Shown here: positions 2,921 through 48,386 of the stretch, piece after piece
How the letters are laid out: each line of letters starts with the position of its first letter
Position numbering within the stretch: the first letter of the stretch is position 1
From: Eledone cirrhosa
Lineage: Eukaryota
DNA length: 64,000 nt
Reading direction: 5' to 3'
Assembly: GCA_964016885.1 (NCBI GenBank)
Contig: OZ024742.1
Coordinates: 68,510,001 to 68,574,000 of the forward strand
The notes under the pieces: generated by a model
Seen by the model: the letters and a program-made list of their open reading frames with translations, nothing else
Databases searched by the model: none
What the model was told of the DNA's origin: nothing
Position numbers and translations under genes: made by a program

Positions 2921-3335
2921 GTCAGGTCGCTCTCGAGTGCTACTGGTAACATGTAACCCCGTACAACCTGTCTCATTGTCGGATCGTCGGCGACTAAAGC
3001 GGCAACCCCACCAAGCATGCTTGGTGAGGAAGATGATATTTGGACACCCTGCAAGATGAAATACAAGACCCGGCAAAGGGCGGAGAAACTCAACAGTGTC
3101 AACAGCCATTCAAATAGTACTTTTTTTTTCACCTGGAAGTGAAAGGCCCCCAGTTGTTGTCACAATACCTTTCTAAGAGAAGGAAACTCTGAAAAAATAA
3201 ACCTGCGGCTTCGGAAGCATCCGATGATGTTGACCAGTTCTCCTTTTCGGGTAGTGTTTGCGATGCTCTAAGAGTGGGATTGGTCGAGTGCAAGACCTTT
3301 CCACACTTAAAAAACCTTCAAAGCACAGGCATTGC
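2921..3335 (+). mobile_element. Diverged relative of the 608-bp RTE-derived non-autonomous element (head plus core)
   Basis: Starts gtcaggtc, shares ggcgactaaa, caccaag..cttggtgagga, agaaggaaactctga, gatgatgttgac and cacaggcattgc with the 608-bp element. Confidence 0.8.
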
Positions 3336-3710
3336 TTGTTTAGGATCTGTTACAGATTTGTGTGACTGGCCGTAGCCTAAAGGTGCACCAAACACTAATC
3401 TGCCGACCTCGCAAAAGCTCTATATCTTTATGATGTATTGTTTTTGTTTATGCCACGAAACTACGTAGTCGAGGAATCTAGGAGCAGTTTAGGTATGATA
3501 CATTTTATTACTAATTATATCTAAATGTTTCTTCTCTCTTCATAATGTATTTTTAACTCTGATACTGGTTCAGTCTAATTCAACCGGATTGGTCTGTCCC
3601 AGTCATTCATTGAGCAACATCGGTAAGGTTGGCACCATTAACTCACGGTTGGGTGTGGATGCATTCATGTATATGTGTGTGTCCGCACGTATTTGTGTGT
3701 TTCTAAATAT

Positions 3711-3763
<53 letters not shown>

Positions 3764-3791
3764 GGGACTATTTTCCTATATATATATATAT

Positions 3792-3989
3792 ATAGGAAAA
3801 TAGTCAGGACCCCCACGGCAGAGCTCAAGCGTTTCGACAGCTGGACGAGTCCAGAAATAGCTGTCGAAACGGCTTGAGCTCTGCCGTCGGGATCCTGATT
3901 ATTTTCCTATTACCCACTCTACTACCCAAAGTATCGAGTACTCTGGTGCGTTATGGTCCACCTGGTTCCTTAACACACTTCCTTCATTA
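3792..3989 (+). mobile_element. Penelope-like terminal fragment with fold-back palindrome (3792-3910) containing a hammerhead 3' half
   Basis: GAAA-cggc..gccg-TC at 3866-3888; homologous to 32053-32266 (opposite strand); flanked by (TA)n. Confidence 0.6.
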
Positions 3990-4066
3990 TACATACATAC
4001 ATACATACATACATACATACATACATACATACATACATACATACATACATACATACATACATACAT

Positions 4067-4677
4067 GGTGGTGGCTGCCAACTCGTTTTCGAGTACGGCC
4101 ACTACTTTATATACATGTAGGAGAACCTCTACCGAAGCGCTGAACGAGTGTGACTTTTGAGTCCAGCCAGCGACTTGAAAACTCTGGTACAAACACTACA
4201 CTTGTGACAATTATTCACACATAGTGCTGGGCCCATGGTGCCATGTGACAACAAGTGCAGAGAGATCTCCAGATATAAAGCAATGCCTGTGCCGTGAAGC
4301 TTTTATAGTGAGCAAAGGCACTGAACAAAGCCAGTCCCACTCTCTTAACCAAGATGATATTTACCAAAAAGAAGAAAAAGTCAACATCATTGGATACCAT
4401 CAGGGTTGCAGGTGTTATATCAAAGTTTTCCTTCTCCTAGAATTCTGCCTTGACAAAAGCTAAGGGGTCATCTCTCCCGGTGATTTTGGATGGCCATTGA
4501 CTCTTAAGAGTTCCTTTGCTCTTTGACAGGTTTTGTTTTTAGTCCTGCAGGATGTCCAAAGTCACCCTCCTCACCAAGAAACCTTGGTGGGGTTGCCAGT
4601 TTAGTCGCCAACAACCCGACCATGAGACAGGTTGTACTGGGATACATGTTACCAGTAGCACCAACTGGTGACCTGAC
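4067..4677 (-). mobile_element. 608-bp RTE-derived non-autonomous retroelement, copy 1, in (TACA)n
   Basis: Near-identical to copies 2, 3 and 5; RTE-like 5' motif ctaggagaaggaaaact; 3' hairpin and (ATGT)n tail. Confidence 0.85.
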
Positions 4678-4727
4678 ATACATACATACATACATACATA
4701 CATACATACATACATACATACATACAT

Positions 4728-5335
4728 GGTGGCTGCCAACTCGTTTTCGAGTACGGCCACTACTTTATATCCATATAGGAGAACTTCTACCGATGCGCTG
4801 AACGAGTGTGACTTTTTAGTCCAACCAGCGACTTGTAAACTCTGGTACAAATACTACACTTGTGACAATTATTGACACATAGTGCTGGGCCCATGGTACC
4901 ATGTGATGACAAGTGCAGAGAGATCTCCAGATATAAAGCAATGCCTGTGCCGTGAAGCTTTTATAGTGAGCAAAGGCACTGCACAAAGCCAGTCCCACTT
5001 TCTTAACCAAGATGATATTTACCAAAAAGAAGAACAAGTCAACATCATTGGATACCATCAGGGTTGCAGGTGTTATATCAGAGTATTCCTTCTCCTAGAA
5101 TTCTGCCTTGACAAAGGCTAAGGGGTCATCTCTCCCGGTGATTTTGGATGGCCATTGACTCTTAAGAGCTCCTTTGCCCTTTGACAGGTTTTGTTTTTAG
5201 TCCTGCAGGATGTCCAAAGTCACCCTCCTCACCAAGAAACCTTGGTGGGGTTGCCAGTTTAGTCGCCAAGAACTCGACCATGGGACAGGTTGTACTGGGA
5301 TACATGTTACCAGTAGCACCAACTGGTGACCTGAC
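4728..5335 (-). mobile_element. 608-bp RTE-derived non-autonomous retroelement, copy 2
   Basis: Same ends and length as copies 3 and 5; flanked by (TACA)n. Confidence 0.85.
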
Positions 5336-5406
5336 ATAACATACATACATACATACATACATACATACATAGATACATACATACATACATACATGCATAC
5401 ATACAT

Positions 5407-6014
5407 GGTGGCTGCCAACTCGTTTTCGAGTACGGCCACTACTTTATATCCATGTAGGAGAACCCCTACCGATGCGCTGAACGAGTGTGACTTTTGAGTC
5501 CAGCCAGCGACTTGGAAACTCCGGTACAAACACTACACTTGTGACAATTATTGACACATAGTGCTGGGCCCATGGTACCATATGACGACAAGTACAGAGA
5601 GATCTCCAGATATAAAGCAATGCCTGTGCCGTGAAGCTTTTATAGTGAGCAAAGGCACTGCTCAAAGCCAGTCACACTCTCTTAACCAAGATGATATTTA
5701 CCAAAAAGAAGAACAAGTCAACATTATTGGATACCATCAGGGTTGCAAGTGTTATATCAGAGTTTTCCTTCTCCAAGAATTCTGCATTGACAAAGGCTAA
5801 GGGGTCATCTCTCCCGACGATTTTGGATGGCCATTGACTCTTAAGAGCTCCTTTGCCCTTTGACAGGTTTTGTTTTTAGTCCTGCAGGATGTCCAAAGTC
5901 ACCCTCCTCACCAAGAAACCTTGGTGGGGTTGCCAGTTTAGTCGCCAACGACCCGACCATGAGACAGGTTGTACTGGGATACATGTTACCAGTAGCACCA
6001 ACTGGTGACCTGAC
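5407..6014 (-). mobile_element. 608-bp RTE-derived non-autonomous retroelement, copy 3
   Basis: Same ends and length as copies 2 and 5; flanked by (TACA)n. Confidence 0.85.
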
Positions 6015-6126
6015 ATACATACATACATACATACATACATACATACATACATACATACATACATACATACATACATACATACATACATACATACATACAT
6101 ACATACATACATACATACATACATAC

Positions 6127-8467
6127 TGGTCCCCAAGAACAAAGACACTCACTTGACAAAAAACTACCGACCCATTGCATGCCAGAACCTATTCCTCCAA
6201 GATCACTGTGAAAATAATAACATCATCACAGATGAACAAGAAGCTGGAAAGAAAGGGGTTTGGGGATGTGCTGAACAACTCCTAATCAACAAAACTGCGA
6301 TGTCGGAGGTGCGACAACTTAGGAGGAATATGACTACAGTCTGGCTGGACTATAGGAAAACTTTCGATTCTGTTCCCCACTCTTGGATGATAGAATCCCT
6401 CCAACTTGCTAAAGTCCCAGACATAATTGTCAGAGCCATAGAGAGGCTGTCTTCTTCTTGGGCTACTATCCTAAGGTTTAAAACAGAGAGGGGGGACTAT
6501 ATTTTCACTGATAAAATAAAATATCGCAGGGGTATATTTCAGGGGGACAGTCTCTTTGTGATATTGTTCATCTTGTCATTAAACCCCTTGTCGTTTCTGC
6601 TCAAGAAATGTGAGGGATACATCATTGGCTCACAGGAGGACAGAAATGCGAACCTAACCCATAACTTCTTTGTGGACGATCTGAAACTCTATGCCAAGAA
6701 CATGGATGGGATGAAGAAAAGTCTTGACCTGGTTACGACGTTCTCAAAGGATGTAGGAATGGAGTTTGGCCAAGATAAATGCTCATACATGACTGTAAAG
6801 CGGGGAAAAACAACAACCCAATCTAGCAACATTGTCATCAATGGTCTAACTGTTTCACCGATATCTGATGAGGACTGCTACAGATACCTGGGGATAGATG
6901 AGACCATATCCTATAATGGTATCTGTAATAACGAACGCGTAACCAGGGAATACTACACCCGATTAAGAAAGATCTGGTCATCGGAACTCTCTGCGCAAAA
7001 CAAAACAGTGGCTCACAATGTGTTTGCTGTGCCTGTCCTACCACCAACGTTTGGAATACTCGATTGGACGATAGACGAAATCCGAGCAGTTGATGTTGGA
7101 ACTCGAAAAATACTGAACAACACCGGAAACTTCCACATCAACAGTGACATAGACCGCCTTTACTTGAAACGTAAGCAGGACGGCAGAGGCCTAACATCAG
7201 TCCAGACAACATTTGAATGTCGCATCATATCTCTCCGACAACATATACGAACCTCGAATCGTAGGAGCCCGTCTCTCGAGCAAGTCTATCTGCATGAAAC
7301 AGATAAGATCATGAGAGTTGGGAAGTAACTCCTTGAGAGATATTCCCTGTGTGATAATCAAAAACTCACACCCAGGGATGTCGCTCAGCAGTATCGCAGT
7401 GAATCCATGGATGAAAAACTGCATGCCTATTAGCAAAAAATCATGCATGGATATGTTGCCAGGAAGCTCCAGAGTGAGAGTAATATAGATAAGGAAAGTA
7501 GTCTATCTTGGACCAACAACCGCTATATTGGCTCCCATTTTGAAAGATACGCTTTTACAATCCAAGAACAGGAGATTAGCACGAAATACCTGATTCACAA
7601 AAGAGATAGGGATGCAGGCAAAACACCTAGATGTGATAACAAGTGCAGACTCTGCAGAACTAACATCGAGGATATCACCTATGTCATCAGCAGCTGTCCA
7701 AAGATGTCATCACGGTACTATCTACCTATGAGGCATGATGTAGTGGCCAAAACACTGTACAATGCAGTTTGTAAAAAAGATAGCCCCGATAATAAACACA
7801 TTAAAAGCTACAACAATGTGGAAGACATCCATGTACATAATAGGAAAGAGTACTGGTGGAATGTTCCAGTAAAAACCTCAATAAAATGCAGGCATAACAG
7901 ACCAGATATTATGATATGGGACAGGGAGAAGAAAACATGCACAGTAGTGGAAATTAGCTGCCCAGCAGATGCCAATATAATATCAAAGATTAGTGAAAAA
8001 GAGAATATTTATGCAGAACTAATGAGAAATCTGCAGATACTCCACTTTGATTACACCTTCAGATTTATGCCTGTGATTATTGGGGCACTGGGGTATGTTA
8101 GTAACTGCCTCAATACAAATCTTGAGAAGCTGGGCTTCACAGGAACAGAAAGAACACAACTAGTTAGGAAACTACAAGTACAATCCATTAATGGAACAGT
8201 AAAAATATGTAAAACATTCCAAAAATGTTGCATCTAATAACTGCATATACACATGTACAGATACAAAGCATATACACATGCACACATACAACTCAAAACA
8301 TACACATCCACACATACAATAACATCCATATCTACACATGCATGCATACATACATATCTACATAGTTGATGTTGTGTAAATTCCAATGAGAGAGTCTTGT
8401 GTCTATGTTAGAAACCGACTCTCTCTCTCTATTGGTAAAACTTTGTGAAATTATAAAACCAGAAGAA
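6127..8467 (+). mobile_element. 5'-truncated R4/Dong-clade non-LTR retrotransposon (family A) in (CATA)n
   Basis: RT, CCHC knuckle and restriction-like endonuclease motifs; 3' UTR ends directly in (CATA)n; 5' end also abuts (CATA)n. Confidence 0.9.
6153..8237 (+). pseudogene. Reverse transcriptase plus RLE endonuclease ORF broken by in-frame stops (7326, 7430)
   Basis: NYRPIAC, DYRKTFDSVPHSW, GIFQGDSL, FFVDDLKLY, YRYLG; CRLC..S.C, RHD, RPDI..WD..VEISCP. Confidence 0.9.
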
Positions 8468-8469
8468 CA

Positions 8470-8503
<34 letters not shown>

Positions 8504-8560
8504 CATACATACATACATACATACATACATACATACATACATACATACATACATACATAC

Positions 8561-8836
8561 AAGGTAGATGAGAGAAAAGTGCTTAATAAAAGATTCAGAC
8601 GAAACCAAACATCAGTCTATAGAGACATGAAGGGCAAAATAATAAGTGTCACTGAGGCCCCATCCCAGAAAGTCATAGATTCCTTTTGGAGAAAAATATG
8701 GAGTGAAAAGAAGAATTTCAACCAAGATACAGTGTGGCTAAGAGAAATCCGAAAGAACTATTGCTCCTAAGAACAAAGACACCCACTTGGCAAAAAACTA
8801 CCGACCCGTTGCATGCCTGAACCTGATGTATAAGAC
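8561..8836 (+). mobile_element. Internally deleted Dong/R4 fragment (pre-RT region joined to RT domain 1)
   Basis: ERKVLNKRFRRNQTSVYR..SFWRKIWS resembles family B 35610-35800; followed by PKNKDTHLAKNYRPVACLNLMYKTY. Confidence 0.75.
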
Positions 8837-8856
8837 ATACATACATACATATCATT

Positions 8857-9386
8857 GATATAATGATATGGGACAGGGAAAAGAAGGCATGCACAGCAGT
8901 GGAAGCCCAGCAGATGCCAATATAATATCAAAGATTAGCGAAAAGGAGAATATTTATGCAGAACTAATGTGAAATCTGCAGATACTCCACCTTGACTATA
9001 CCTTCAGATTTATGCCTGTGATTATTGAGGCACTGGGATATGTTAGTAACTGCCTGAATACAAATCTTGAGAAGCTGGGCTTCACAGAAACAGAAAGAAC
9101 ACAACTAGTTAGGAAATTACAAGTACAATCCATTAATGGAACAGTAAAAATATGTAAAACATTCCAAAAATGTTGCATCTTATAACTGCATATAAACATG
9201 TACAGATACAAAACATATACACATGCACAGATACAACTCAAAACATACACATCCAGACATACAATAACATCCACTACTACATATGCCTGCATGCATACAT
9301 ATCTACCTAGTTGATGTTGTGCAAATTCCAATGAGAGAGTCTTATAACTATTGGCAAAAATTTGTGAAATTATAAAACCAGAACAA
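8857..9386 (+). mobile_element. Short 5'-truncated Dong/R4 family A copy (RLE C-terminus plus 3' UTR)
   Basis: Highly similar to 7905-8467; ends in (CATA)n. Confidence 0.9.
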
Positions 9387-9409
9387 CATACATACATACA
9401 TACATACAT

Positions 9410-9695
9410 GGTGGCTGCCAACTCGTTTTCGAGTACGGCCACTACTTTATATCCATGTAGGAGAACCCCTACCGATGCGCTGAACGAGTGTGACTTTTTA
9501 GTCCAGCCAACGACTTGAAAACTCTGGTACAAACACTACACTTGTGACAATTATTGACACATAGTGCTGGGCCCATGGTACCATGTGACGACAAGTGCAG
9601 AGAGATCTCCAGATATAAAGCAATGCCTGTGCCGTGAAGCTTTTATAGTGAGCAAAGGCACTGCACAAAGCTAGTCCCACTCTCTTAACCAAGAT
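9410..9695 (-). mobile_element. 5'-truncated copy 4 of the 608-bp element
   Basis: Retains the 3' 286 bp on the minus strand; both ends in (TACA)n. Confidence 0.85.
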
Positions 9696-10940
9696 ACATA
9701 CATACATACATACATACATACATACATACATACATACATACATACATACATACATACATACATACATACATACATACATACATACATACATACATAAGAA
9801 TAAAATATTATGAATACTACTTCTTGAAGTATGGCGTGTATTATTCTACGTGTGAAATTCTTAATCTTTCGAAAAAGCACAGAGGTAAATGTACATGTGT
9901 GCGAGTGTAAATGTGCATGCATGTGAGTGCATGCTTCTGTATGCGTGTGTGTGTGTGTGTTTATGTACATTTGTCGATGAGAAAATCAGTGACCAGTACT
10001 TCTGAAACGAAGTCCCTGAGGTTATTTTTCTGTATTGAGTTACACAGACACTCTCTTGTCGCTTACAACGTCGGAAATACAATGATACTGAGATTGCAAA
10101 GATAGAAACCAATAAAGAATGACGTATAAAATTTGGAAAAACATAATTTTGAAAAGAAACGAAATGCAATGTCAGTGATAAAACACAAATCATTGATCTC
10201 TCAGTCCAATATCCGGTATCCTATCGATACACAATTTCCTTTTCTCAAGTATTATATATTTATTTATTTATTCAAATTAAACGTCCGTGGCAACCTTATC
10301 ACTTAGGATTTTAGAAACAATGATAGAGACGGGTGGGGGGTGGAGAAAGAAGAAAAGAAAGAGAGTTCAAAATGGAAAGAAAAGTACCAAAGATAAGAAA
10401 AAAGATGATAAACAACGATAACGATAGAGCATGTTGTTGAATCTTTTTGTAGCCATCATGTACTAGAGAAATCTTGTTCATGAATGGTAGATACTTGACA
10501 ACATATGTTCACCGTCATTTATGTACATGTACTTACTCTCGGGTCTCGAATAATCGCCCATACCCCAGCTTATTAATTTTTCAGATCCTCCCCTCCTACT
10601 CTTATTTCCCCACCACCACCACCACCCTGCTTATTAAATTTTGCTAATCTATCTCCGGCGAAATTTTATTTTAAGTGGTAGCATTCCTGCGACAATTGAT
10701 TTTTTTTATGCATCCCAAAATATTATACATGACAAAATAAGAACATTACTAGAAATCCAATGCATTATAAAATAAATAGGATAGATTGCGGTTTCAATAT
10801 GTAAACTAAATGACTAATTTGGGATTTTTAAAAAATCAACGGAGACAACCTAAAAAATGTGCCGAATTTCCAAACCCACCACAAACCCCACTCATGCTTA
10901 TACCAACTTCCCCTTCATTCTACCACACACACACACACAT

Positions 10941-16698: not shown

Positions 16699-16924
16699 GG
16701 GTTAGGGTTAGGGTGGGGGTGGGGGTGGGGTGAGGATGAGGGTGAGGATGGTGGTTAGGGTGAGGGTTAGGGTTAGGGTTTGGGCTAGGGTAGGGTTAGG
16801 GTTAGGGTGAGGGTGAGGGTTAAGGTGAGGGTGAGGGTGAGGGTGAAGGTTAGGGTTAGGGTTAGGGTTAGGGTTAGGATTTGGGTTAGGGTAGGGTTAG
16901 GGTTAGGGTTAGAGTTAGGGTTAG
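16699..16924 (+). repeat. Interstitial degenerate (TTAGGG)n tract
   Basis: Mix of TTAGGG, TGAGGG and TGGGGG units. Confidence 0.9.
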
Positions 16925-32019: not shown

Positions 32020-32052
<33 letters not shown>

Positions 32053-32054
<2 letters not shown>

Positions 32055-32266
32055 CGAAGGAAATGTGGTAAGGAACCAGGTGGACCATAACGCACCAAAG
32101 TACTCAATACTTAGGGTAGTAGAATGGGTAATAGGAACGAGTAGGACCCCGACGGCTGAGCTCAAGCCGTTTCGACGGTTAATTTTTTTTTTTTTTTTTT
32201 TTTTTAGTCCAGAATTAGCCGTCGAAACGGCTTGAGCTCAGCCGTCGGGGTCCTACACGTTCCTAT
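32053..32266 (-). mobile_element. Second copy of the Penelope-like terminal fragment with fold-back palindrome (32131-32266)
   Basis: Homologous to 3792-3989; GAAA-cggct..agccg-TC in both arms; (TA)n on both sides. Confidence 0.65.
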
Positions 32267-32280
32267 ATATATATATATAT

Positions 32281-33363
32281 ATATGAAAAAGTGAGTCCTT
32301 CATCAGTGACCCTCCAACCGTCCTCGGCATTTCATCGCTTTAAGGGCCATATGCCTCAGGTTGGTGCGAACAACGGCTAAAAAAAGTCGTTGGGACACGT
32401 AAATAAAGGGGGACGCTAGAGTAACAACAAAAAGGTTTAAGCAACGGAAAGTGAGTAGAAATAGACAAGTCCCAGATCTCTATGAATATAAACTCTGTGA
32501 AATCGTGAACAAGAGACGAAAGACCATCAGACCTGGTTGAAATGTGAGCAAGGAAAGAATTTCGCCCAAGTTTGACGGGGGGGAAAAAAGAGAGAGAGAG
32601 AGAGAGAAAGAAAAAGGAGAGAAGAAGAAGAAGAAGAAGAAGAAGAAGAAGAAGAAGAAGAAGAAGAAGAAGAAGAAGAAGAAGAAGAAGAAGAAGATAA
32701 GGGGGTCTGGTCTACGAATTCGGTAAACGCAAGTTTTGTGAAGTCGCAGACGAAAGAGAGAGAGAAAAAAATTCCATACCAGCTCGGGCAAGACTGCGCG
32801 AGAAAAGAATTACACACAGGTCAAACTTGAAGGAGGAGGAGAGGTAGTGACAGAGAATGAGTGAGTGAAAGTTGAGGAGAGAGTAACAGAGAGGGAGACT
32901 GCTAGAAGTGGTAAAGATACAAGGAACGAAACAGACGAAGGCAGCATGGAAAAGTTATATGTGTAAATATGATGATAATAATGGAGCTGCGGCGTTGCAA
33001 ATGGGATACATATGAAAAAGTGAGTCCTTCATCAGTGACCCTCCAACCGTCCTCGGCATTTCATCGCTTTAAGGGCCATATGCCTCAGGTTGGTGCGAAC
33101 AACGGCTAAAAAAAAGTCGTTGGGACACGTAAATAAAGGGGGACGCTAGAGTAACAACAAAAAGGTTTAAGCAACGGAAAGTGAGTAGAAATAGACAAGT
33201 CCCAGATCTCTATGAATATAAACTCTGTGAAATCGTGAACAAGAGACGAAAGACCATCAGACCTGGTTGAAATGTGAGCAAGGAAAGAATTTCGCCCAAG
33301 TTTGACGGGGGGGAAAAAAGAGAGAGAGAGAAAGAAAAAGGAGAGAAGAAGAAGAAGAAGAAG

Positions 33364-33393
<30 letters not shown>
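32281..33393. repeat. Partial tandem duplication with 729-bp period, bounded by (TA)n
   Basis: 32281-32696 is repeated almost exactly at 33010-33393, differing mainly in (GA)n and (GAA)n lengths. Confidence 0.9.
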
Positions 33394-33462
<69 letters not shown>

Positions 33463-33879
33463 GCGTACACACACCGGTGTGTGTTAATATATATAACATG
33501 TCATCAATGTTTATGAAATTACATTCTAAGACACCTTATGTCGCAGAACCCACTTTGAGAAACATTACCTAAAATAATCAAGTGTTAGATATCCCGAAGA
33601 GGAATTGGATTATCAAAGTTGGGACGCCTTTGATACTTGATTATCTTAATTAGGACTGATTGGTTCAAACAGTACCATCACCACTATTATGACTTCTACC
33701 GTTAATAAAACAAGTATCAAGGTCCAGAAACTATGAACATTCTGAAAGTACACTGTAATTCTACTTCACTGATATGTTTTCTTAATAGATAACAACACTG
33801 TTATCAGAAATACTTCAGTTATACATATATCATGTAGATAATACAAACATACAGACTTGTATACATACATACATTAGAG

Positions 33880-34217
33880 GCCCCCATCGGTCACGAATGA
33901 CCATGGGATTTGCACCTAGAAAGTCCCCCCCCCCCCGCACCGAGGCACAAGCCTGGGCAAGGTTTGTTTGTGGAAGACCATCAATCGTTTAAGCATACTA
34001 GTCTCCTCTCTCCACGCCACCGATGTTGTCAAAGGGAAAGGCAATGGCCGATACAGCTTGGCACCAGTGACGTCGCAACTCTACAACTAAGTGAACTGGA
34101 GTAACGTGAAATAAAATGACTTTCTCAAGAACACTAGGTACCACTCGGTCCGAGAATAGAACTCACAACCTCTGAATTGCAAGCCTAATGCTCTAACCAC
34201 TAAACCATGCGCCTTCA
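33880..34217 (-). mobile_element. tRNA SINE (octopus OR-like)
   Basis: Minus-strand head ggcgcatggtttagtggttagagc..gagttctattc with tRNA A/B boxes. Confidence 0.7.
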
Positions 34218-34362
34218 CGCATGCATACATACATACATACATACATACATACATACATACATACATACATACATACACACACACATACATACATACATAC
34301 ATACATACATACATACATACATACATACATACATACATACATACATACATACATACATACAT

Positions 34363-34970
34363 GGTGGCTGCCAACTCGTTTTCGAGTACAGCCACTACTT
34401 TATATCCATGTAGGAGAACCCCTACCGATGCGCTGAACGAGTGTGACTTTTTAGTCCAGCCAGTGACTTGAAAACTCTGGTACAAACACTACACTTGTGA
34501 CAATTATTGACACATAGTGCTGGGCCCATGGTACCATGTGACGACAAGTGCAGAGAGATCTCCAGATATAAAGCAATGCCTGTGCCGTGAAGCTTTTATA
34601 GTGAGCAAAGGCACTGCACAAAGCCAGTCCTACTCTCTTAACCAAGATGATATTTACCAAAAAGAAGAACAAGTCAACATCATTGGATACCATCAGGGTT
34701 GCAGGTGTTATATCAGAGTTTTCCTTCTCCTAGAATTCTGCCTTGACAAAGGCTAAGGGGTCATCTCTCCCGGTGATTTTGGATGGCCATTGACTCTTAA
34801 GAGCTCCTTTGCCCTTTGACAGGTTTTGTTTTTAGTCCTGCAGGATGTCCAAAGTCACCCTCCTCACCAAGAAACCTTGGTGGGGTTGCCAGTTTAGTCG
34901 CCAACGACCCGACCATGGGACAGGTTGTACTGGGATACATGTTACCAGTAGCACCAACTGGTGACCTGAC
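34363..34970 (-). mobile_element. 608-bp RTE-derived non-autonomous retroelement, copy 5
   Basis: Same ends and length as copies 2 and 3; flanked by (TACA)n. Confidence 0.85.
34422..34529 (-). CDS. 35-aa C2H2 zinc-finger micro-ORF in the 608-bp element (also 4129-4236, 4787-4894, 5466-5573, 9469-9576)
   Basis: ACCATGG start; MGPALCVNNCHKCSVCTRVFKSLAGLKSHTRSAHR*; open in all five copies; translation unproven. Confidence 0.35.
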   Translation of the reverse strand: MGPALCVNNCHKCSVCTRVFKSLAGLKSHTRSAHR

Positions 34971-35052
34971 ATACATACATACATACATACATACATACAT
35001 ACATACATACATACATACATACATACATACATACATACATACATACATACAT

Positions 35053-38000
35053 GACTCTACTGAACAAACAGAGCACCAAAAACTTGTGGACACCCTACAA
35101 GTGATATGGAACGATATGTTTCAAGAGATACACAGCCTTAATGTGAGTGACAGACCATACAACACTAGAATCAGTAAAGAACCCACTAAATTGGAATTGG
35201 AAGCGGTGAACGAAATAGCTGGCAATTATCTGAAGGCTATACGATCTAAAGGTGTAGAAACGACATTTGAAACGCTTAATGTTTTGTTATATGTTTCAGC
35301 TGTCACATTGCTATCATATAACACACATCTAAAACCACGCAATCAAGATACAAACAGGAAGCCTGAACCAGCGTGGATGCGAAATTTAAAAACCAAAATT
35401 TTGTCCCTGAGACGAAGTATCTCACACATCGCAGTCGTTATGAAATGCAACATAGAGAGCAACTTCACAGGACACCAGGAAGATCTAAAGAAAAAGTTAG
35501 AGAGACGATTTGGAGATACAAAATTTAAAACTTTGAACTCCGAATTACACCAGTTGAAACAACAACTCACAGCTACAACAGAAAGACTAAAATATAAGTC
35601 AACAGCACATAAACGACAAGTGCTAAATAGATTGTTTGCCAGAGATCCTAAATCAGTTTATCGCAGCTTCGGTGGCAAAAGCTCAATCCCTGTAAACGAC
35701 ACCCCTTCAAAAGAACAGGTTGAGAGCTACTAGAGATCTGTATGGGAAACGGATGACGGATTCAACAGACAAGCTAATTGGCTAAAAGAACTGGAACAGG
35801 ACTACTGCCAACATGTCCAGACAAAACAATATGACATAGATGGGTCAATACTGGAAACAGCTCTACAGAAAATGTCGAATAGGAAATCGCCAGGCCCAGA
35901 CCTCATTACAGGATACTGGTTGAAGAATTTCACTTTCTATCGGCAAGATCTCATACGGCTGTTTACAGAAACCATTAAGGGCACACAAGAACTGCCCAGA
36001 TGGTTATCAACTGCCACTACTCTCCTCATTTCCCAAAATAGCCAAACCACCCTTGCTAAAAATTACCGCTCAATTGCCTGCCAAAACATCATGTATAAAT
36101 TATATACTGGGTGCCTTAACCTGTTCTTACAGGATCACTGTGCTACCAACAACATCATAACACCTGAGCAAGCTGGTGGAAAGAGGGAGGTGTGGGGTTG
36201 CATAGATCACCTACTAACTAACAAAATGATTCAGGAAAAAACAACAAAGAATCGCAGAAACATGACTGTGGTGTGGCTGGACTATCAAAAAGCATTTGAT
36301 AGTGTACCTCATGGGTGGATTATTAAGGCTTTACAGTTAGCTAAAGTCCCACAACCATTGGTAGCTGCTGTTGAACGCCTGACCAAGAACTGGTACACCA
36401 ATTTGATCCTTAGAGGTGAGAAGGAGCAGGTTAAGACTCATAAGATACATTACCAGAAGGGCATCTTTCAGGGTGATAGCTTGTCAGTGCTACTCTTCGT
36501 TCTCTCACTGAATCCACTATCTTACCTACTCAGGAAACAAGGTGTACAAAGAAGTGGGCCCAGAAGTATCTCCCATCTTTTCTTTGTTGATGACCTGAAG
36601 TTGTATGGGCCAAATATCAATGACATCAAGAAACAATTGGACCTCATTACACAATTTTCAACCGACATCAAAATGAAATTTGGTGAGTCCAAGTGTGCAT
36701 ATTTGGCAGTAAAACGTGGAAGAGCTGTGCCCTCCTCTAGAAATCTACAGATGAACGGCCTGACAATACAACCTCTGCAGTCAGGTGACAACTACAGATA
36801 TCTTGGACAGGATGAGAATGTCAGATATGATGGACCCATAAATAAGGAGAGAACCAGAACTGAATACCTCAGAAGAGTAAAGAAAATATGGTCATCAGAA
36901 CTGTCAGCATACAACAAATACATTGCCCACAATACTTATGCTGTGCCAATTCTAACGCCAACATTAGGCCTGCTGAACTGGTCATTGCAAGAACTAACTG
37001 AGATGGATGTTAAAACTCGAAAACTTCTCAGTGTTACTGGAACTTTAAAATCAATGGTGATGTGGATAGGCTATACTTCTCACGCAAGGAAGATGGCCGG
37101 GTCTAAAATCAATATTAACAACATATGAGACCCGGATAGTAACACTGAAGCAACACCTTCGACAGAGGAAAAAGGTTGGCAACCATCTTGCCCAGGTTTA
37201 TGAGCATGAAAAAAAAATATCATTAGAATAGTGACTGATCTGGAGGAGAGATATGGAATAAAGCCTGATATAAATCTCTCACCCAGAGAAATCGGAAGAT
37301 CCTATTCAATGTTCAAACAAGATTAAAAAATTGACCAATTTACAGAAAAAGTTGTGCATGGATACTTGAGGCGTAAAACACAGACCATATAGGGGATAAA
37401 CCACTCAAAAAGCCTGGCATGGAGTTCCGACAGGTTTATGACATCACACCTTGAGGGATATCTCTATGCAATACAGGAACAAGAACTCCCTACCAAATAT
37501 CTGCTGCACAAAAGAGGAGGGCCAGCAGCTGACAATAAATGTAGGCTATGTAAAACAAAGATCGAGGATGTAAGCCACATTGTTGCCAGCTGTGAAAGAA
37601 TGTCATCTCGCTACTACCTCCCCATGAGACACGATGGGATAGCTAGAACCATCTGGAACGCACTTCGGAAAACAAAATTAACAACAAACGAGGAAGAATA
37701 TATTGAGACAGATGGCACTAAGGAATACTGGTGGAACCTGAAAATAAAAACTGCCACCAAATTAAAGCACAACCGGCCTGATATTGTTGTTTGGGACCAC
37801 ACATTGAAAACGTGTTCTGTTGTGGAGATCAGCTGCCCACTTGATGCAAACGTTGTCAGAAAAATACAGGAGAAGGAGGACATCTACGGACCATTGATGA
37901 GGAGTTTACAAATCCACTATCCAAGATACACCTTTAGCTTCATACCCATCATTATTGGAGCTACGGGTTATATACCAACCCGCTTGGACCAAAGTATGAC

Positions 38001-38194
38001 TGAACTTGGATTTGCGGACAAAAAGCGCTGCTCCCTAATTCATAGTCTACAAATGGCTGCGATAGCTGGCACCTTCAAAATTTGCAAAACATTCTTGCGA
38101 TTCAAGGGATGACAATTTCTTTTCTTTTACAACCTTGCCACCAGGAGGGTGGCCGGTCAAAATAAATATACTCGAAATTAAGAGAAAGAGAAAA
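35053..38194 (+). mobile_element. 5'-truncated R4/Dong-clade retrotransposon (family B) in (CATA)n
   Basis: Broken ORF 35053-38112: KSPGPDLI, DYQKAFDSVPHGW, GIFQGDSLS, FFVDDLKLY, CRLC..H..ASC, RHD, RPDIVVWD, EISCP; 3' UTR hairpin gccacc-aggag-ggtggc; (CATA)n at both ends. Confidence 0.92.
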
Positions 38195-38273
38195 CATACA
38201 TACATACATACATACATACATACATACATACATACATACATACATACATACATACATACATACATACATACAT

Positions 38274-38667
38274 GGTTGCATCTGTTTTGAGAATTCCCAT
38301 TCCTTGATATTTTTCTCATACACGGGTGGCACGATAATGACCTTTTAGTTCCTCCCAAGGATTTAGATTCCTTTCTGTATATGTTGCAGCGAATGAAAAA
38401 AGAAAAGGCCATATTCTTGCAACAATCGTTTAGATCAAATGAAACTTTTTTTAAGTGAAGAAAGGCCTTACACTGGATCAATCCCACTCTCTGAACAATG
38501 GTGACGGGTATCCAAAAAGAAGAACAGGTCAACATCATTGGCTGCCATCGAGTTGTAAAGATTTCTTTCTTTTAGAATGATGTCCTAACAAGAACTAGGA
38601 TCTCTCACTCTCGGTGAGCTAACTGCGCGTTCGGGCGCTAAACCGAGTATTTCCATATCCCCGCGTA
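38274..38667 (-). mobile_element. Diverged short element sharing the core of the 608-bp family but with a different head
   Basis: Shares aatcccactctc, aaaaagaagaaca.gtcaacatcattgg; head tacgcggggatatggaaata is like 47694; flanked by (CATA)n. Confidence 0.6.
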
Positions 38668-39376: not shown

Positions 39377-39987
39377 GCATACACATACATGCATACTTAC
39401 ATAGATGCATACTTACATACATGCATGCCTGCATACATACATGCATGCATGCATGCATACATACATACATACATACATACATACATACATACATACATAC
39501 AAATATACATACATACATGTCTGCATACATACATACATACATGCCTGCATACATACATACATACATACATACATACATACATACATACATACATACATAC
39601 ATACATACATACATACATGCATGCATGCATGCATGCATACAAACATACATACATACATACATACATACATACATACATACATACATACATACATGCATGC
39701 ATGCATGCATGCATACATACATACATACATACATACATACATACATACATACATACATACATACATACATACATACATACATGCATGCCTGCATACATAC
39801 ATGCATACATACATACATACATACATACATACATACATACATACATACATACATACATACATACATACATACATACATACATGCATGCCTGCATACATAC
39901 ATGCATACATACATACATACATACATACATGCATACATACATACATACATACATACATACATACATACATACATACATACATACATA
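39377..39987. repeat. Compound (CATA)n/(CATG)n microsatellite
   Basis: About 610 bp; the interruption atgcatgcctgcatac recurs. Confidence 0.95.
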
Positions 39988-40950
39988 CTCCCGGGGAAAT
40001 TGCACAGCAATGCCGCAATGAATCCAGGGATGAAAAGTTGCATACATATCGGCAAAAAATCCTGCATGGCTATGTCGCCAGAACGCTTCAAATTGAGAGA
40101 AATATAGATAAACAAAGTAGTCTCTCTTGGACCATCAACCGGTATATTGGATCTTACTTTGAATGATATTCTTTTGCTATCCAAGAACAGGAAATAACAA
40201 CAAAATACCAAATGCACAAAAGAGATAGAGATTCAGGCAAAACACCTGGATGTGACAACAGATGCAGACACTGCAAAATAAACATCGAAGATGTCACCCT
40301 CATTATAAGCAGATGTCTAAAGATGTCCCCATGATACTATTTACCCATGAGGCATGATGTAATGGCCAAAAGCACTATACAATGCAATCCATAGAAGGGA
40401 TATTCCTGAGAATAAAAATATTTTTAAATTACCGTGGTGTAGAGAAGATGTGCCTACATAATATGAAAGTGTACTGTGGAATGTTCCAGTCAAAACCCCA
40501 GTAAAATGTAAACATAACATGCCAGATATAGTGATATGGGATAATGAAAATTAGGTATGCACAGTAGTGGAAACCAGTTGCCCAGCTAAAGATTAGCGAA
40601 AAGGATATTTATACTGAACTAAGAATCTGAAGATACACCAGCCTAACTATGCCTTTCGATTTGTACCTATGATCATTGGGGCTCTGGGATATGTTACAAA
40701 CTGCCTCGGTACAAATCTTCGAACCTGGATTTCACAGAACCAGAAATGACACAGCTAATTAGGAAGCTGCAGGTACAGTTCATTAATAGAACTGTAAAAA
40801 TATGTAAAACATTTCAGAAATTCTACATGCAATAAATGCACATACACACGTATAGATACAGAAACATGCACATTTACACATATAACTCAAAACATACAGA
40901 TACACTTATTCAATAGCATCCATAGCTGCACACACACAATCACATACAGG
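39988..40950 (+). mobile_element. Older 5'-truncated Dong/R4 family A relative
   Basis: KILHGYVARTLQIERNIDKQSSLSWTINRYIGSYFE; colinear with 7370-8350; starts in (CATA)n. Confidence 0.85.
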
Positions 40951-41460: not shown

Positions 41461-41659
41461 CAATAAGCATACACTTCGGAGTGTAAAAGCCAAACTCGTT
41501 TTCTTCAATTCGGTATTAGTGCCACCCCTTAACTATGGTCACGAATCTTGGTTAATGACTGAAAGAATACGATTGCGAATACAAGAAGAAGAAGAAGAAG
41601 AAGAAGAAGAAGCAGTAGTAGTAGTAGTAGTAGTAGTAGTATTGAGTCTCTCGAGACGT

Positions 41660-44600
41660 GGTAAATTTCGGCGGAGTAAGCTCATTGTTTGTTAACGTGT
41701 TTACAAAACATTTTTGCCAGAATATTATATATTGTTTTGTAGCTAAATCAACCATCTTCTTAGAGAAAAATCCGTCCGCTGAAATGAACTGCCAAAGTTC
41801 AGAAAATAAAGACAGCAGCAACAACAACTTTGCACGGGAGAACTATGCAATCAACTTCGACACCGACGCCACATTCACAAGAACAATAAAATTTAAAGTA
41901 AAACACAAAAAAAACAACGCTAGTACCACCCCCACCGCCACCATTAAAAATAACAACTTTAGCGCTACCACAACAACCAAAAAACATTGATATAAATAAT
42001 AGCCACACCATAAAGAGCAAATCAACACCAGTGTCAACATGAACACCAACAACAACAGCAGTGACAAAAATGATGACAACAAAACTAATGAAAAACACAA
42101 CAAAAACTTTTTGACATCGCGAGTATAAATTAAAAAAATAGATGTTTCCATTAACACTGGAAAATAAAGACTTTGGATTGGCTCAAGTCAAAACGATAAT
42201 AAAATTTGAAGGCGGGAAGACAGCAGTAATGATGTCTAAAAAGTGACAAAAGGGGCCAAAACACTGTCTTTTACCGAATTGTGTTTCCACGGACCTGCCA
42301 CAATTATTCAAGTGGAGAAGGCTCTAAAAGAAGTAATGGTAGATGTGGCCCACATACAAAGAGCAAGGGCGTTTGCCAGAGTCAAGATCCTCTTCAAAAG
42401 TGAGGACCTCGAGCGACATGGTCTCCCGTTAGAGTAAGGAGTTTGTCCTATATCCGACGTACCTCTCACTCAATATTATCAGATTATCCCGTAATATCAT
42501 CAGTCTCGCACGCTTTTGATCAGATGCCAGAAGACGTGGAACCCACCGAGCAAAAACCTTCGGCGTGCCAAGTACATTGTGCAGAATATTCTCGACTCTC
42601 TCACGGGAAATGGTAATAGTCATCCATCATCGTGTGGTGAGCACGATCAATGTTTTCCTCGGTGGTGGTAGTTGCAGGATGCCCAGACCTTGAGTCATCA
42701 TCAAAACTCTCCCTTCCTCTCCTAAATTAAGCTGCCAACTTTTGCACAGTTGATGAACCTGGAGCGTCATCTCCTAATGTAGCAACCATGTAGCTATGTA
42801 GCTAAACCCTTTTTCTGCAGGTATTTGCTAACACCACAATGCCAAATTTTGTCCATTTTTACGAGAAGTCGTTACTAGTTACTTTTGAAGTCTTCTTTGA
42901 ACAGTCAAATGTCAGTTTATTTGGAAAGAAACAATGTATTTATTAATAAGAAGAGTTGAAAGTAATGTATGCAATATTTCACTGCTCTAGCATAGCTCCT
43001 TCATTGTCAGCCTATAATATTTTCAGCTCACCATCGCACAACCGCCCAATGGGATGGAACGTAGAACAAATATTGAAAGCAAAGACCAAAATGCCGTCTG
43101 TGTGATCCGAAAAGTCACCTAAGAGACTTTTGCCTTTCAAAATAGTAGACAAGAGGCCATCGCTATAACTAACACCGGGGCCTCAACAAAAGCAAAATCA
43201 ACGACAGTATTCCACTCCTGTAGCAGCATGAACAACAACAGCGACAGCAAGAACACCAACAATATCACCAATAACTACGCCAGCAGCTGTAAAACCAACA
43301 AGACTAGCAGCTGCTCCAGCAACAACAAAAGCAGGTGAGACAACAACAGTACCAACTGCAGCAACAGAAGCATTAACACAGCAGAAATACAACAGACATC
43401 GTCAAAATCAGACAGAGGGTCTCCAAACGCAGCTCCCCCCTCTCTTTCTCTATCTATCTATCTCTGCCTCCTCTAAACACACGCATATATGGACACTCAC
43501 AAACACAATCTTACCCATGTCCGAGGAAGATTCCGCAGATACCTGTACCTCCACACCTCGAAGTGAAGATGAAGCCCCCCCCCCCCCCCCCCCAATAAAA
43601 AAGTCGAAAAAGAAAACACAAAAACATCTTGCCTCACACCAACACAAACGCCAGAAAAAAAACAGAGAACACACCTCCACCAATTACAGACACACCTACA
43701 ACACCAACCTCCTTAACACCACAACCATCAACAGAACCACCGCCACCACCTATCACTACCAACACTACCGCAACCACAACGACCCACAAAAAGAAAACAC
43801 ACAACAACAACAACCAATCACAGAGACGCCAAACTTCGTACTACTGAGGAAGGTCAACGAAGAATTGATAGCTTTCATTGCACAAATAGAGGATATTGAG
43901 AGATAAGTGGAAATGTTTGGCACCAGCAGGTTTAAAATGTCACAAACACTAATACAAAAACACCAGGGAGGATTTCTCCAACTACGTGGGAGCCTATAAT
44001 GTAAGAACCACCAGTAACCTTTTAAAGAAGTTCCCAAAGGAACCCCAACCAGATATAGAGGTCAAACCACCCGATCTCAAACAGCGCCAGGGCTGTAAGT
44101 AGCTCCCTTTTTTCTGTTAACTCTTTCATACCAACATGGTAATTTTAAGAGTTGGTTACATAATTGTGGCCAATGGTCGTCCTGGAAGTAAGGTCAGTTG
44201 CTTAATGACCACAAATCACTAGCGAAAAATGTGACAGCCGTCAGTGAGACCAGGATTTCCGACACACGTACTAATCCCTATTTTAGACGACTTTGATATC
44301 TTCGCATCTCTTAGTCGGCCTGGAATGGGAGGCGGGGTGGCGGTGCTGTTTAGGAAAGCCCAGCATCTCGAGGTAAGGTCGATCTTCCTGAGCCCGGAGG
44401 GTAAGTTGGTGGTTCTGAATGTGAACAATAGTGAAGGTGGTACATTTAGAGTGGTGGTTGTCTATGCCCCGATTATGGCAAAATGGTTGGATTTTTCAGG
44501 CATCTGGAAGCCTTTCTTGGAACCTCTTACCCATTACTGTTAGCCGGGGACTAGGTGGCATCTTAGACGCACGCTCGTGGTGTGCATATGTAGCTCAGAG

Positions 44601-46420
44601 AAATGGGTGGTGTAAAAGCCTCAAGAACCTGATCAGTCTATCCCAACTATCTGACAGGTACCTACTAGATTTCCCGAATGCTCCAGTGTGGATATGGGCC
44701 AATTGCAGAGGGTCATCAAGTTGTATTTAGATAGGCTTTAGGTGTTTTTTCATTAGGTTAGCAGATAGGGATAGCGTAGGTTGTCAACAGCTACAAACAG
44801 TTGCACCTTTTCAGACCACAAATGTGTGAGCTGCATGGTCGACATAGATAAAACACGTCGACAAAGAAGGGGTTATTGGAAGATTAAAGCGTCGTACCTG
44901 GCGTATAAAGCCAACAAAAACCTTATTAGCTCATTAGTTAAGCAACAGATAATGGCTCAATCGTCAACAACTGGTGGGGCGTGCTCTCAAGAGAGCGATT
45001 AGAGTAAAATCAATAGCTTTTAGTAAAGAAGTAACAATAGAAAAATATAGTAGAGGCGGAATTGGTAGATTAAACTAGAATAGGCGATTAGGAGTGGCAT
45101 TGCAACCGACGTACTAGCTGCAGGAATGGCACTAGACCATTTATTCATTACGAAACACGAAGGTTGCATTGTTAGACATAAAGCACCTGCTCGAAGACAC
45201 GAGGAACGAAAGCTGTTCGATGGGATCGAGTGGCAGGTTACAGCATGACAATAAAGCTACAATTTGGTATTTGATGGGGCAAGATGGGCGCGTGAAGGAC
45301 GATTCCAAGCAGATCTGTGCAGGTTTCCAGTGGCAATTTGCGCAACTGTTTGGGGCAAGATGGTGAAGGCGGAGATGGTGGCGGAATATAGTTCCTAACT
45401 CGACGGCCTGTCGTGATTCGTGACAGAAGATACGAAGTGCTGCGAAAAGTCGATAACAGCAGCGGAGATTCAGGAAGCCCTAATCAGCTACATGAGGCGC
45501 AAATCGCCCGGTTTAGGTGTTCCACATTACGAGTTTTCCGTATATATGTCAGACTTGATCTCCAATGTCATCGAAGCCGTCTAATGCTGGCCTCAGAACG
45601 GGAGAATTCACAATTCTATGAGTCGGTGTGTAGTAACGTTGATGAAGAAAGACGAGAACAAGAGGGTTGTAATTGATAATTTCCGGCCCATAATTCTGTT
45701 CAACACTGAGTTTAAGATTTTGGCCACGGTATTAACAATGAGGTTGGCGCTTGTTGTCAAGAGTCTGGCAGGGGAGGTGCAAACTGTTGCAGGGTATTCG
45801 GCTGGAATGTGTCGAACTCCTCGGAAATTGAAGTGATCAGCAACTTCGTAGATGAATATGAAACGCTTACCGGATAAGTTGGTGAGTTTGCAGCGTGGCA
45901 CCTGGAGAGGCAAATCCATTCCGTTCAACAACGTCTGGTTCGCTCAGCACTTCCAGGTGGATAGGAACTGGAACGAGGCAACAAGCAGGGTGGTCACGCA
46001 TACCCAGAAATGAGCTGAGAGAAAACTATTCCTGAAAGGTCGGTGGAGGGGGCGAATGGGTACATCGCTTTCGGCATCTATTACCGCCAAGCAGTCGTGC
46101 CTTGCCCCAGCTCACGCCTCACTATATTGGAGCGCCTGCTCTTTCATTTCTAGTGAAAGGGACATGTTCCATTGGCCGGGTGGTCTGTCTGTTGCCAGCA
46201 CCTTATGCGCGGAGGGCTAGGCATGCCGTGGCTGATGATGCGTAAACATGCATTTGTAGATATTCCTAAACGATGAACAGATGTGATCGCCGTGTGTAAG
46301 ACACTTCTTCCGCCTACATTCTACACAACAGTGACCACACAACTAAGCAATCCAAGTGAGTACACACAACAACCGAATCAACACCACAACACACCAGCAT
46401 CTCATCTCAGCATCAACATG
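41660..46420 (+). mobile_element. Decayed L1/Tx1-clade LINE (ORF1 remnant plus APE-RT ORF2)
   Basis: GGGVAVLFR, VVVVYAP, SDHK..GYWKI, DNFRPIILFNTEFKILATVL; many stops and frameshifts. Confidence 0.75.
42435..43036 (-). mobile_element. Mariner fragment nested in the L1/Tx1 element
   Basis: ILHNVLG..KVFARWVPRLL..DQKRARL; TIR-like cgatggtgagctgaaaa. Confidence 0.75.
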
Positions 46421-47225: not shown

Positions 47226-47343
47226 CAACGATAGCCCCACAACGGCTTTTATGTCATAAATATATATATGTTTGTGACTATGTGTATACATACATACATA
47301 CATGCATACATATTTACATGCATGCATGCATGTATACATACAT

Positions 47344-47694
47344 GATGGCTGCCCCCTCGTTATCGAGTAAGGCCATTGCACATATAACATTATTAATAAT
47401 TATCAATTAATGCTATCGTGCAATGCCTGTGCGTGAAGATATTATTTAAAGTGAGGAAAGACTGCGCACTGAGCCAATCCCACTTTCTGAGCGACAGTAG
47501 CTATAACCCGAAAAGAATAAAAGATCAACATCATCGGTAACTACTGAGCCGCAGGTTTCATGTCGGAGTTATCCCAGTTTCTTGAGTTGCCTTCTCCTAG
47601 AAGAATGCCCTGACAAAGGCTTGGGGTCCTTCATTCCCAGTGGTTTAACTGCGCCATCGGGTATACAGCCAGATTATTTCTATGTCCCCGCGTA
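47344..47694 (-). mobile_element. Short relative of the 608-bp family (alternative head, same core and 3' hairpin, no zinc finger)
   Basis: ccttctcctaga, tcaacatcatcgg, caatgcctgtgc; 3' hairpin tggcc..ctcg-ataa-cgag..gcagccat; flanked by CATA-like repeats. Confidence 0.7.
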
Positions 47695-47731
47695 TAGACA
47701 TACACATACATACATGTATACATACATGTAT

Positions 47732-48191: not shown

Positions 48192-48386
48192 ATTTTGGAT
48201 GGCCGTTGACTCTTATGAGTTCTTCCGCCCTTTGTCAGGTTTTGTTTTTTGCCCTGCAGGGTGTCCAAAATCACCCTCCTCACCAAGTAAACTTGGTGGG
48301 GTTGTCGGTTTAGTCGCCGACGTTCCGACCATGCGACAGTTTGTACTGGGTTAAATGTTAGCAGTAGCACTCAAGAGTGACCTGAC
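48192..48386 (-). mobile_element. Head-only diverged copy of the 608-bp element
   Basis: Same 5' start gtcaggtc; about 195 bp of homology. Confidence 0.8.

Follow-up and report, generated by a model that had tools for sequence, protein, structure and literature searches.

Target-specific long interspersed nuclear elements (LINEs) fall mainly within the group encoding a restriction-like endonuclease and within the Tx1 and R1 groups, those with an apurinic/apyrimidinic (AP) endonuclease belonging mainly to R1 and Tx1 (PMC4640811). Several of these elements choose microsatellites: Dong of Bombyx mori, DongAg, and DongBg are listed with TAA as their target and Waldo, of the R1 clade, with ACAY repeats (PMC3812793), and Togen targets (TG)n (PMC4640811). 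As for the RTE clade, its members are described as inserting without sequence specificity (PMC2887409), the RTE-dependent short interspersed nuclear elements (SINEs) of hagfish show no strong preference (PMC7245038), and the bipartite RTESINE, RTE-N, and Bov-A elements consist of an RTE 5′ part and 3′ end joined by internal deletion (PMC5786205). In octopus, Dong-R4 elements are listed as abundant and recently active (PMC13282606, PMC8967140), papers on these genomes list both Dong-R4 and RTE as abundant or active (PMC13282606, PMC9115989, PMC8967140), and RTE-2_OV of Octopus vulgaris encodes an endonuclease, a reverse transcriptase (RT), and, at its terminus, a C2H2 finger, its 3′ untranslated region (UTR) being rich in microsatellites (PMC9115989). 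From an architectural perspective, a parallel is found in the SaTar arrays known from guayule and rice, in which unrelated Mutator-like (MULE) DNA transposons follow one another in a line, linked by microsatellites and without nesting (PMC5907723). Here, we analyze a (TACA)n array situated at 3989–9796 of a 64,000-nucleotide stretch of Eledone cirrhosa DNA (contig OZ024742.1; hereafter the window), which lies in a 3.0-Gb genome assembled into chromosome-scale contigs and in which Dong-type LINEs stand beside a 608-bp element, hereafter E.

Sequence inspection, BLAST, and Tandem Repeats Finder (TRF) give the order of units as three E copies (−), a Dong-type LINE named D1 (+), further D1 pieces (+), and a truncated E (−), with (TACA)n between all of them. 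This array had been noticed from the letters alone in an earlier note, and sequence and BLAST confirm it; the same architecture returns at 33875–38273, where a second Dong lineage, D2, is present, and at many loci genome-wide. We consider it probable that the array is a (TACA)n microsatellite into which two unrelated, oppositely facing lineages of non-long-terminal-repeat retrotransposons inserted independently, each likely priming at a strand-specific nick.

Orientation and target choice of the two lineages

Among 192 neighbor pairs joined by a microsatellite (drawn from all fetched loci, a non-random set in which a few pairs were perhaps counted twice), Dong and RTE-type elements faced opposite ways in 89 of 90 cases, when Dong/Dong pairs shared a strand in 23 of 23 and RTE/RTE pairs in 65 of 73; the six remaining pairs involved a SINE-like element, four in the same orientation as the RTE-type element and two opposite. 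The sole Dong/RTE exception (L414:1732-3054) is a D1 5′-region fragment joined directly to the body of RTE-A, an autonomous relative of E, and inserted in RTE polarity, likely through a template switch between RNAs of both lineages. The strict strand polarity proposed in the earlier note is thus nearly attained by Dong/RTE pairs but relaxes in (TA)n, since RTE/RTE pairs were opposite in 3 of 6 TA-rich spacers versus 5 of 67 TACA-type spacers, some of these cases being 5′ inversions. In unbiased samples, none of 100 E copies had a same-strand Dong neighbor and none of 30 D1 copies a same-strand RTE-type neighbor, 9 of these 30 having an E neighbor. The strand of E is itself fixed because all truncated copies keep the same end.

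The assignment of D1 to the Dong-type LINEs, also proposed from the letters alone, is supported by its RT (Pfam RVT_1, E value 1.5e-17), a CCHC knuckle, and a restriction-like endonuclease PD..E motif, all present in the window copy, whose open reading frame (ORF) contains stops. The knuckle of D1 and D2 reads C-x2-C-x7-H-x4-C, with H in D2 and at locus L065 and Y replacing H in the window D1, and their endonuclease motif reads RPD...E; the EEP (AP endonuclease) family was absent from the D1 and D2 pieces scanned. The best PDB matches of P0002, a close homolog of D1 and D2, were all R2 or R2-like RT proteins. In an RT tree whose references do not bear the name Dong and leave out R2, NeSL, and HERO rows, D1 and D2 grouped (100/99) with insect proteins, apart from AP-endonuclease elements. 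These insect proteins include the B. mori protein P0065, which has the same architecture, is 37% identical, and is not called Dong in the database; the nearest named relative of the Dong-type RT of the window is from Argonauta hians (63%). R4/Dong elements are not known to carry an N-terminal zinc finger or Myb domain, and no C2H2 pattern was seen by eye in the N-terminal frame of one locus (L079), the Pfam scan covering only the part from L065. The R4/Dong label used here rests on this architecture.

A full-length D1 measures about 4.1 kb, and its listed matches include stop-free frames of up to 1,134 amino acids, candidates for intact ORFs. Exact patterns found 4,572 D1 3′ ends and 503 5′ ends genome-wide, with 0 for the controls. 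By eye, CATAC starts 87 of the first 100 listed 3′ flanks, the other 13 being CATA-type variants, and, for 98 of the first 100 5′ ends listed, a TACA-type repeat lies within 30 nt upstream; in D2, CATACATA comes after 10 of 12 3′ ends. In both lineages each end borders CATA repeats and the element is oriented along the CATA strand, and because the repeat flanks D1 on both sides, the tract is its target rather than its tail. This target, (TACA)n, differs from the (TAA)n of Dong sensu stricto. Short extra units (AGTC repeats, TTCCAT, AGAC) are common at the 5′ junctions of full-length D1, which suggests template jumps or untemplated addition when cDNA synthesis ends.

On the RTE side, E, its autonomous relatives RTE-A2 and RTE-A, and related short derivatives lie along the TATG strand and prefer TATG and mixed TA/TATG tracts. 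In the first 100 consecutive exact E 3′ ends of contig C1, the 3′ flank was pure TATG in 14 cases, pure TA in 6, mixed in 66 (G exceeding C in 59, equal to it in 1, and C exceeding G in 6), and other than microsatellite in 14, which makes 80 of 100 flanks TATG, TA, or mixed without C excess. Contrary to the reading in the earlier note, E is hence not specific to (TACA)n, most copies lying outside pure (TACA)n; 73 of 79 full-length copies have ATGT or ATAT directly 3′. In a 200-kb systematic sample that serves as random background (a separate 560-kb background being biased towards LINE bodies), E abuts 2 of the 10 TACA tracts and, among 111 TA tracts, a single one; per tract, TACA is still favored by E, on these small numbers. 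Target duplications of 9–22 bp (mode 12), scored in imperfect tracts, flank 15 of 79 informative full-length copies versus 2.7 (maximum 8) in shuffles, and 14 of the 15 begin with AT after T; their length agrees with the roughly 6–20 bp usual for RTE elements. The renewal of the target by insertion, which had been suggested for the whole array, is thus supported on the RTE side by duplications of about 12 bp; for Dong, duplications numbered 2 of 69 versus 3.6 by chance, and self-renewal is not borne out. The strong TATG/TA preference on the RTE side, with its polarity, departs from the non-specific insertion described for RTE elements, although such insertion is a reported trait and does not strictly define the clade.

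It could be argued that the repeats are tails made by the elements themselves through reverse-transcription slippage, a process described for lepidopteran RTEs, to which later elements merely anneal without true target choice. RTE tails are known as microsatellite sources (PMC2887409), RTE-A ends in variable (CAT)n, an older RTE-like family with (AAG)n ends sometimes abuts (AAG)n, and tail annealing may well contribute to polarity. However, the repeat is also found 5′, at 98 of 100 full-length D1 as well as at copies of D1, E, and RTE-A truncated to variable extents, the target duplications of E include imperfect tracts, which so existed before it, and the E 3′ flank varies between TA, TATG, and TG mixes, unlike a fixed tail. 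We accordingly regard element-made tails as an unlikely source of the array. Unselective insertion followed by survival or pile-up in microsatellite-rich, low-constraint regions is another conceivable route in a genome as rich in microsatellites as this one (555 TA tracts/Mb in the 200-kb sample), but it cannot yield base-precise junctions and fixed polarity. Moreover, very young RTE-A copies (0.6% apart) have the same flanks, when RTE-B, another RTE lineage of similar age, lies mostly in unique DNA, and in the 200-kb sample 4 of 10 TACA tracts versus 2 of 111 TA tracts abut one of the elements described here. Mere retention is on these grounds highly improbable.

Independent insertion and layout of the arrays

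The three E copies of the array differ pairwise at 23–25 of 608 sites. In a tree of 58 full-length E, a sample biased towards relatives of copy 2, this copy falls within a 12-copy subfamily from which its neighbors are excluded (100/98), and monophyly of the trio is rejected by the approximately unbiased (AU) test (p=0.0098). Divergence between 15 neighboring E pairs (0.033) is no lower than between 1,638 distant pairs (0.030). Copy phylogeny thus supports independent insertion over local duplication, as had been suspected from the private variants of the copies. A local origin, through duplication in tandem or through unequal crossing-over or gene conversion from one TACA tract to another, has some points in its favor: tracts that vary in length are prone to unequal exchange, recombination may have produced the deleted D1 piece and its internal CATA run, and two cases of close kinship between neighbors were met, namely a local duplication of D1 2.4 kb apart with flanks and 5′ junction in common (L381/L382), the one such case among 30 D1 loci, and a neighboring E pair that are sisters (L051, 96/88). 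Yet the rejection of the trio, the spread of the copy 2 subfamily over other contigs, and the differences in family, truncation point, and age between array units make it very unlikely as an account of the array, and for the three E copies a duplication origin appears largely refuted already.

The possibility that repeats collapsed or expanded during assembly and so created the array artificially is extremely remote: the copies are about 4% apart at private sites, the architecture recurs with different content at many loci, and an independent short-read run yielded 14,845 contigs of E, including one joint of two E copies across a CATA-type spacer (depth 2.6). Of the runs listed for E, none is an RNA run; among those under other organism codes, two gave a single low-depth E contig each and a third gave no reads, so that the many codes are no evidence of wide distribution.

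Copies of E are also clustered, 26 of 100 having another E within 2 kb when uniform placement gives 1.9. A null that chooses randomly among tracts of equal length gives means of 11 and 6 at 40–80 tracts/Mb, for a measured density of 50–90, and these counts lend weak support to the idea that arrays grow faster than long tracts alone predict.

Feature coordinates are gathered below. Tracts of (TACA)n, given in the earlier note as the sole material between units, do occur throughout, with a few extra bases at junctions. Likewise, the two further Dong fragments reported downstream of D1 exist as D1 pieces (8561–8835 and 8857–9385, joined by 3–4 CATA units, and corresponding to positions 1320–1544, 1746–1815, then 3533–4093 of a full-length D1 copy), but they may be one internally deleted copy rather than two.

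Features of the two arrays and of a nearby Dong fragment (window positions)
Feature	Position	Strand	Evidence or remark
(TACA)n tract, left end of the array	3989–4066	+	TRF
Element E copy 1, 608-bp non-autonomous RTE derivative	4069–4676	−	extra CCA at 3′ junction
(TACA)n spacer	4677–4726	+	TRF
Element E copy 2	4727–5334	−	in 12-copy subfamily (100/98) spread over other contigs, both neighbors outside
Imperfect (TACA)n spacer, three interruptions	5335–5405	+	sequence, TRF
Element E copy 3	5406–6013	−	BLAST
(TACA)n spacer	6014–6126	+	TRF
D1, 5′-truncated Dong/R4-type LINE	6127–8466	+	RT, CCHC, restriction-like endonuclease, 3′UTR; stops break ORF
(TACA)n spacer	8467–8560	+	TRF
D1 pieces	8561–9385	+	88–95% to reference copy
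(TACA)n spacer	9386–9408	+	TRF
Element E, 5′-truncated, positions 322–608	9409–9695	−	BLAST
(TACA)n tract, right end of the array	9696–9796	+	TRF
SINE-like element, other side of second-array E	33875–34222	−	between TATG repeats, polarity as E
Second array: full-length E between (TACA)n tracts	34362–34969	−	BLAST
D2, second Dong lineage, 5′-truncated, between (TACA)n tracts	35052–38193	+	RT 53% identical to that of D1 (amino acids)
Old fragment related to D1 (77%), preceded by an imperfect (TACA)n tract of 600 bp	39987–40932	+	TRF, BLAST

The SINE-like element of the second array begins with what we take to be a tRNA-like head. Elsewhere in the window, a palindromic element of about 200 bp resembling a miniature inverted-repeat transposable element lies in (TA)n at 3790–3990 and 32051–32268, its first copy forming the left border of the array; a unit of about 390 bp occurs twice at 32277–33393 (98% identical), both times with a terminal (AG)n(AAG)n; an interstitial telomere-type (GGGTTA)n repeat of 38 copies occupies 16699–16924; and a decayed Tx1-like LINE at 44300–46400 (+) resembles, by eye, intact Tx1-like ORFs elsewhere in the genome.

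Origin of element E and a proposed mechanism

Element E, of which 24,554 exact 3′ ends were counted genome-wide, ends in a C2H2 finger remnant and a hairpin, and copy 1 is made up of an RTE-type 5′UTR part, the end of a zinc-finger ORF, and the 3′ hairpin. Its last ~180 nt (429–608) are 91% identical to the 3′ ends of RTE-A2 (L074, L342), with a zinc-finger frame common to both, so that E appears to be a bipartite RTE derivative. The RTE origin suspected at the outset is thereby supported and tied to a parent lineage, when the idea of E as a passenger of Dong gives way to its RTE 3′ end and RTE-type duplications. Positions 191–397 of E are 68% identical to the 5′UTR of RTE-A, a sister of RTE-A2 (54% amino-acid identity) found by a search with a distant RTE-like protein, RTE-A2 being found in turn by tblastn of RTE-A against fetched loci. 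Both RTE-A2 copies seen are broken, and the one traced upstream is 5′-truncated and lies between two oppositely oriented D1 copies. By contrast, 10 of the 11 RTE-A loci (L347–L357) keep an intact ORF of about 1,150 amino acids, and this lineage, its copies 0.6% apart, was likely active recently. Its single ORF encodes EEP (PF03372), RT (PF00078), and several C-terminal C2H2 fingers, the last of which aligns with the E peptide; over the final 33 nt, RTE-A and E are 85% identical, and RTE-A ends in a variable (CAT)n tail of the RTE kind. The next bases are TATG or TA at 10 of 10 RTE-A 3′ ends, and TATG lies just upstream of 6 of 7 truncated 5′ ends. Four RTE-like rows of the RT tree join RTE-A (99/97), the CR1-like and Tx1-like rows lying elsewhere; these row labels rest on motifs rather than database names. 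The UTRs of RTE-A are full of internal microsatellites.

The lineage RTE-B shares with E its first 274–297 nt (96–98% identity) and has a different ORF and tail; only 1 of 6 of its 3′ ends lies at a TA tract. Because RTE-B carries the E 5′ end and is yet untargeted, targeting appears to go with the ORF or the 3′ end, on a small number of copies. This common 5′ end is likely a recent capture between RTE lineages. RTE-B copies with a (GTCTGA)n tail occur at L329, L336, L338, L339, and L340 (e.g., from G000:C1:241896371 onward), L340 carrying 297 nt.

As for other leads on the ancestry of E, Pfam searches of the genome for AP endonucleases returned Tx1-, CR1-, and I-like elements only, a protein search with the E zinc-finger peptide gave no match, with generic C2H2 clusters only in the Atlas, and a zinc-finger spacing pattern missed the parent, whose seed differs. 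A candidate parent drawn from an exclusion pattern proved to be an E subfamily with a small deletion, and an RTE fragment in the window (41465–41587) proved to belong to an old, decayed, unrelated family. The latter RTE-like family (also at L162–L180) ends in (AAG)n, and some of its truncated copies abut (AAG)n. No self-cleaving ribozyme, of the kind that some RTEs carry, was found at the E 5′ end in Rfam at E<=5, nor by a descriptor resembling that of hepatitis delta virus in the first 170 nt, a divergent ribozyme being possible. Older short relatives of E (U1, E2, and E3; window 2921–3500, 47341–47700, 48192–48386, and 38447–38545) each end in a hairpin followed by ATG(T), E2 being a bipartite derivative of RTE-A (90%).

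During target-primed reverse transcription, the orientation of the insert depends on which strand is nicked first. Since Dong elements read along the CATA strand, their restriction-like endonuclease would make its first nick on the TATG strand. Conversely, since E and RTE-A read along TATG, the first nick of the RTE AP endonuclease would fall on the CATA strand, no more than 2 nt from a TpA step, at or near which the duplications place it. The latter nick would leave a primer ending in AT, able to pair with a CAU-type RNA tail. Its site would be offered by only one strand of (TACA)n but by either strand of (TA)n, a difference that would account for the relaxed polarity in (TA)n. Two bases of pairing being too few to choose a tract, the endonuclease or the C-terminal fingers likely contribute some recognition. 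Each insertion would split the tract and leave repeat on both sides, E adding about 12 bp, so that insertions would never destroy earlier elements and non-nested arrays would accumulate. A bolder version, in which the zinc-finger RTE lineage evolved true TATG/TA targeting, for which this AP-endonuclease clade is not known, and splits (TACA)n by strand with two Dong lineages, self-renewing polarised arrays holding a large share of TACA tracts and driving their growth, seems to us possible but rather doubtful.

Several observations weigh against strand-specific, independent insertion as we propose it. Junction microhomology makes the cut position uncertain by about 2 nt. By the rule applied, the flank is non-microsatellite at 14 of 100 E 3′ ends, as counted above, and at 29 of 100 E 5′ ends, several of the latter being split alignments or inversions (59 of the 100 copies are not full-length by alignment), and TACA is missing at 18 of 69 Dong 5′ alignment ends, many of which are internal deletions or later insertions. 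Dong duplications show no excess over chance, the L381/L382 duplication and the L051 sisters reveal some local kinship, and the 192 pairs are a non-random set. The clustering null supposes tracts of equal length, and at 20 tracts/Mb its mean of 21 is not beaten by the observed 26 of 100. Finally, a full-length RTE-A2 was not recovered among the fetched loci, the 5′ part of E matches the RTE-A family at no more than 68%, and the likely mobiliser, acting in trans through the common 3′ hairpin, may be either RTE-A2 or RTE-A.

Comparison with described systems

These results account for the landing place of tens of thousands of young retrotransposon copies in a cephalopod-type genome, where such elements abut four of the ten TACA tracts sampled; the Dong group would gain a new target and the RTE clade, described as unselective, a targeted lineage. 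The intact, near-identical ORFs of RTE-A, together with RTE-B as a natural swap having the 5′ end of E and no targeting, make the system directly testable, and whether zinc fingers, endonuclease, or RNA tail set target and polarity is open to test. From a practical perspective, TACA microsatellite markers in such genomes may be expected to have repetitive flanks often.

In their single ORF with RT, CCHC, and restriction-like endonuclease, and in their insertion into microsatellites, D1 and D2 are like Dong of the R4 clade; they differ from Dong, DongAg, and DongBg in their TACA target, observed in two lineages 53% identical in RT. The ACAY target of Waldo includes ACAT, the same repeat as here, but Waldo belongs to another clade, as do Mino, Kibi, Koshi, and Togen, which are microsatellite-targeted LINEs too. 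The AP-endonuclease element described here is of the RTE type, unlike the target-specific elements of R1 and Tx1. Element E, apparently bipartite and with duplications of about 12 bp, is similar to RTESINE, RTE-N, and Bov-A; yet, unlike described RTEs and hagfish SINEs, it favors TATG/TA tracts and shows polarity in them, as do its autonomous relatives. By description, RTE-2_OV resembles RTE-A in its domains and 3′UTR, and the available sections of PMC9115989 report no target preference for it; nor was a note on the target of octopus Dong-R4 or RTE elements seen in those of PMC13282606, PMC9115989, and PMC8967140. With SaTar, the arrays share non-nested multimers of unrelated elements with microsatellite between them, but their units are 5′-truncating retrotransposons rather than MULEs with terminal inverted repeats, and their opposite polarity is fixed by lineage, when the word "orientation" is absent from the SaTar paper (PMC5907723). 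In the literature consulted, which left the primary Dong papers, Repbase, and Dfam outside its scope, we found no description of a TACA-targeted Dong, a microsatellite-preferring RTE, or fixed opposite polarity. Overall, microsatellite-targeted Dong elements, bipartite RTEs, and microsatellite-joined arrays are known already, each component having a known analogue; the details that appear to be new are TACA as a target, target choice in an RTE lineage, and the split of the tract by strand.

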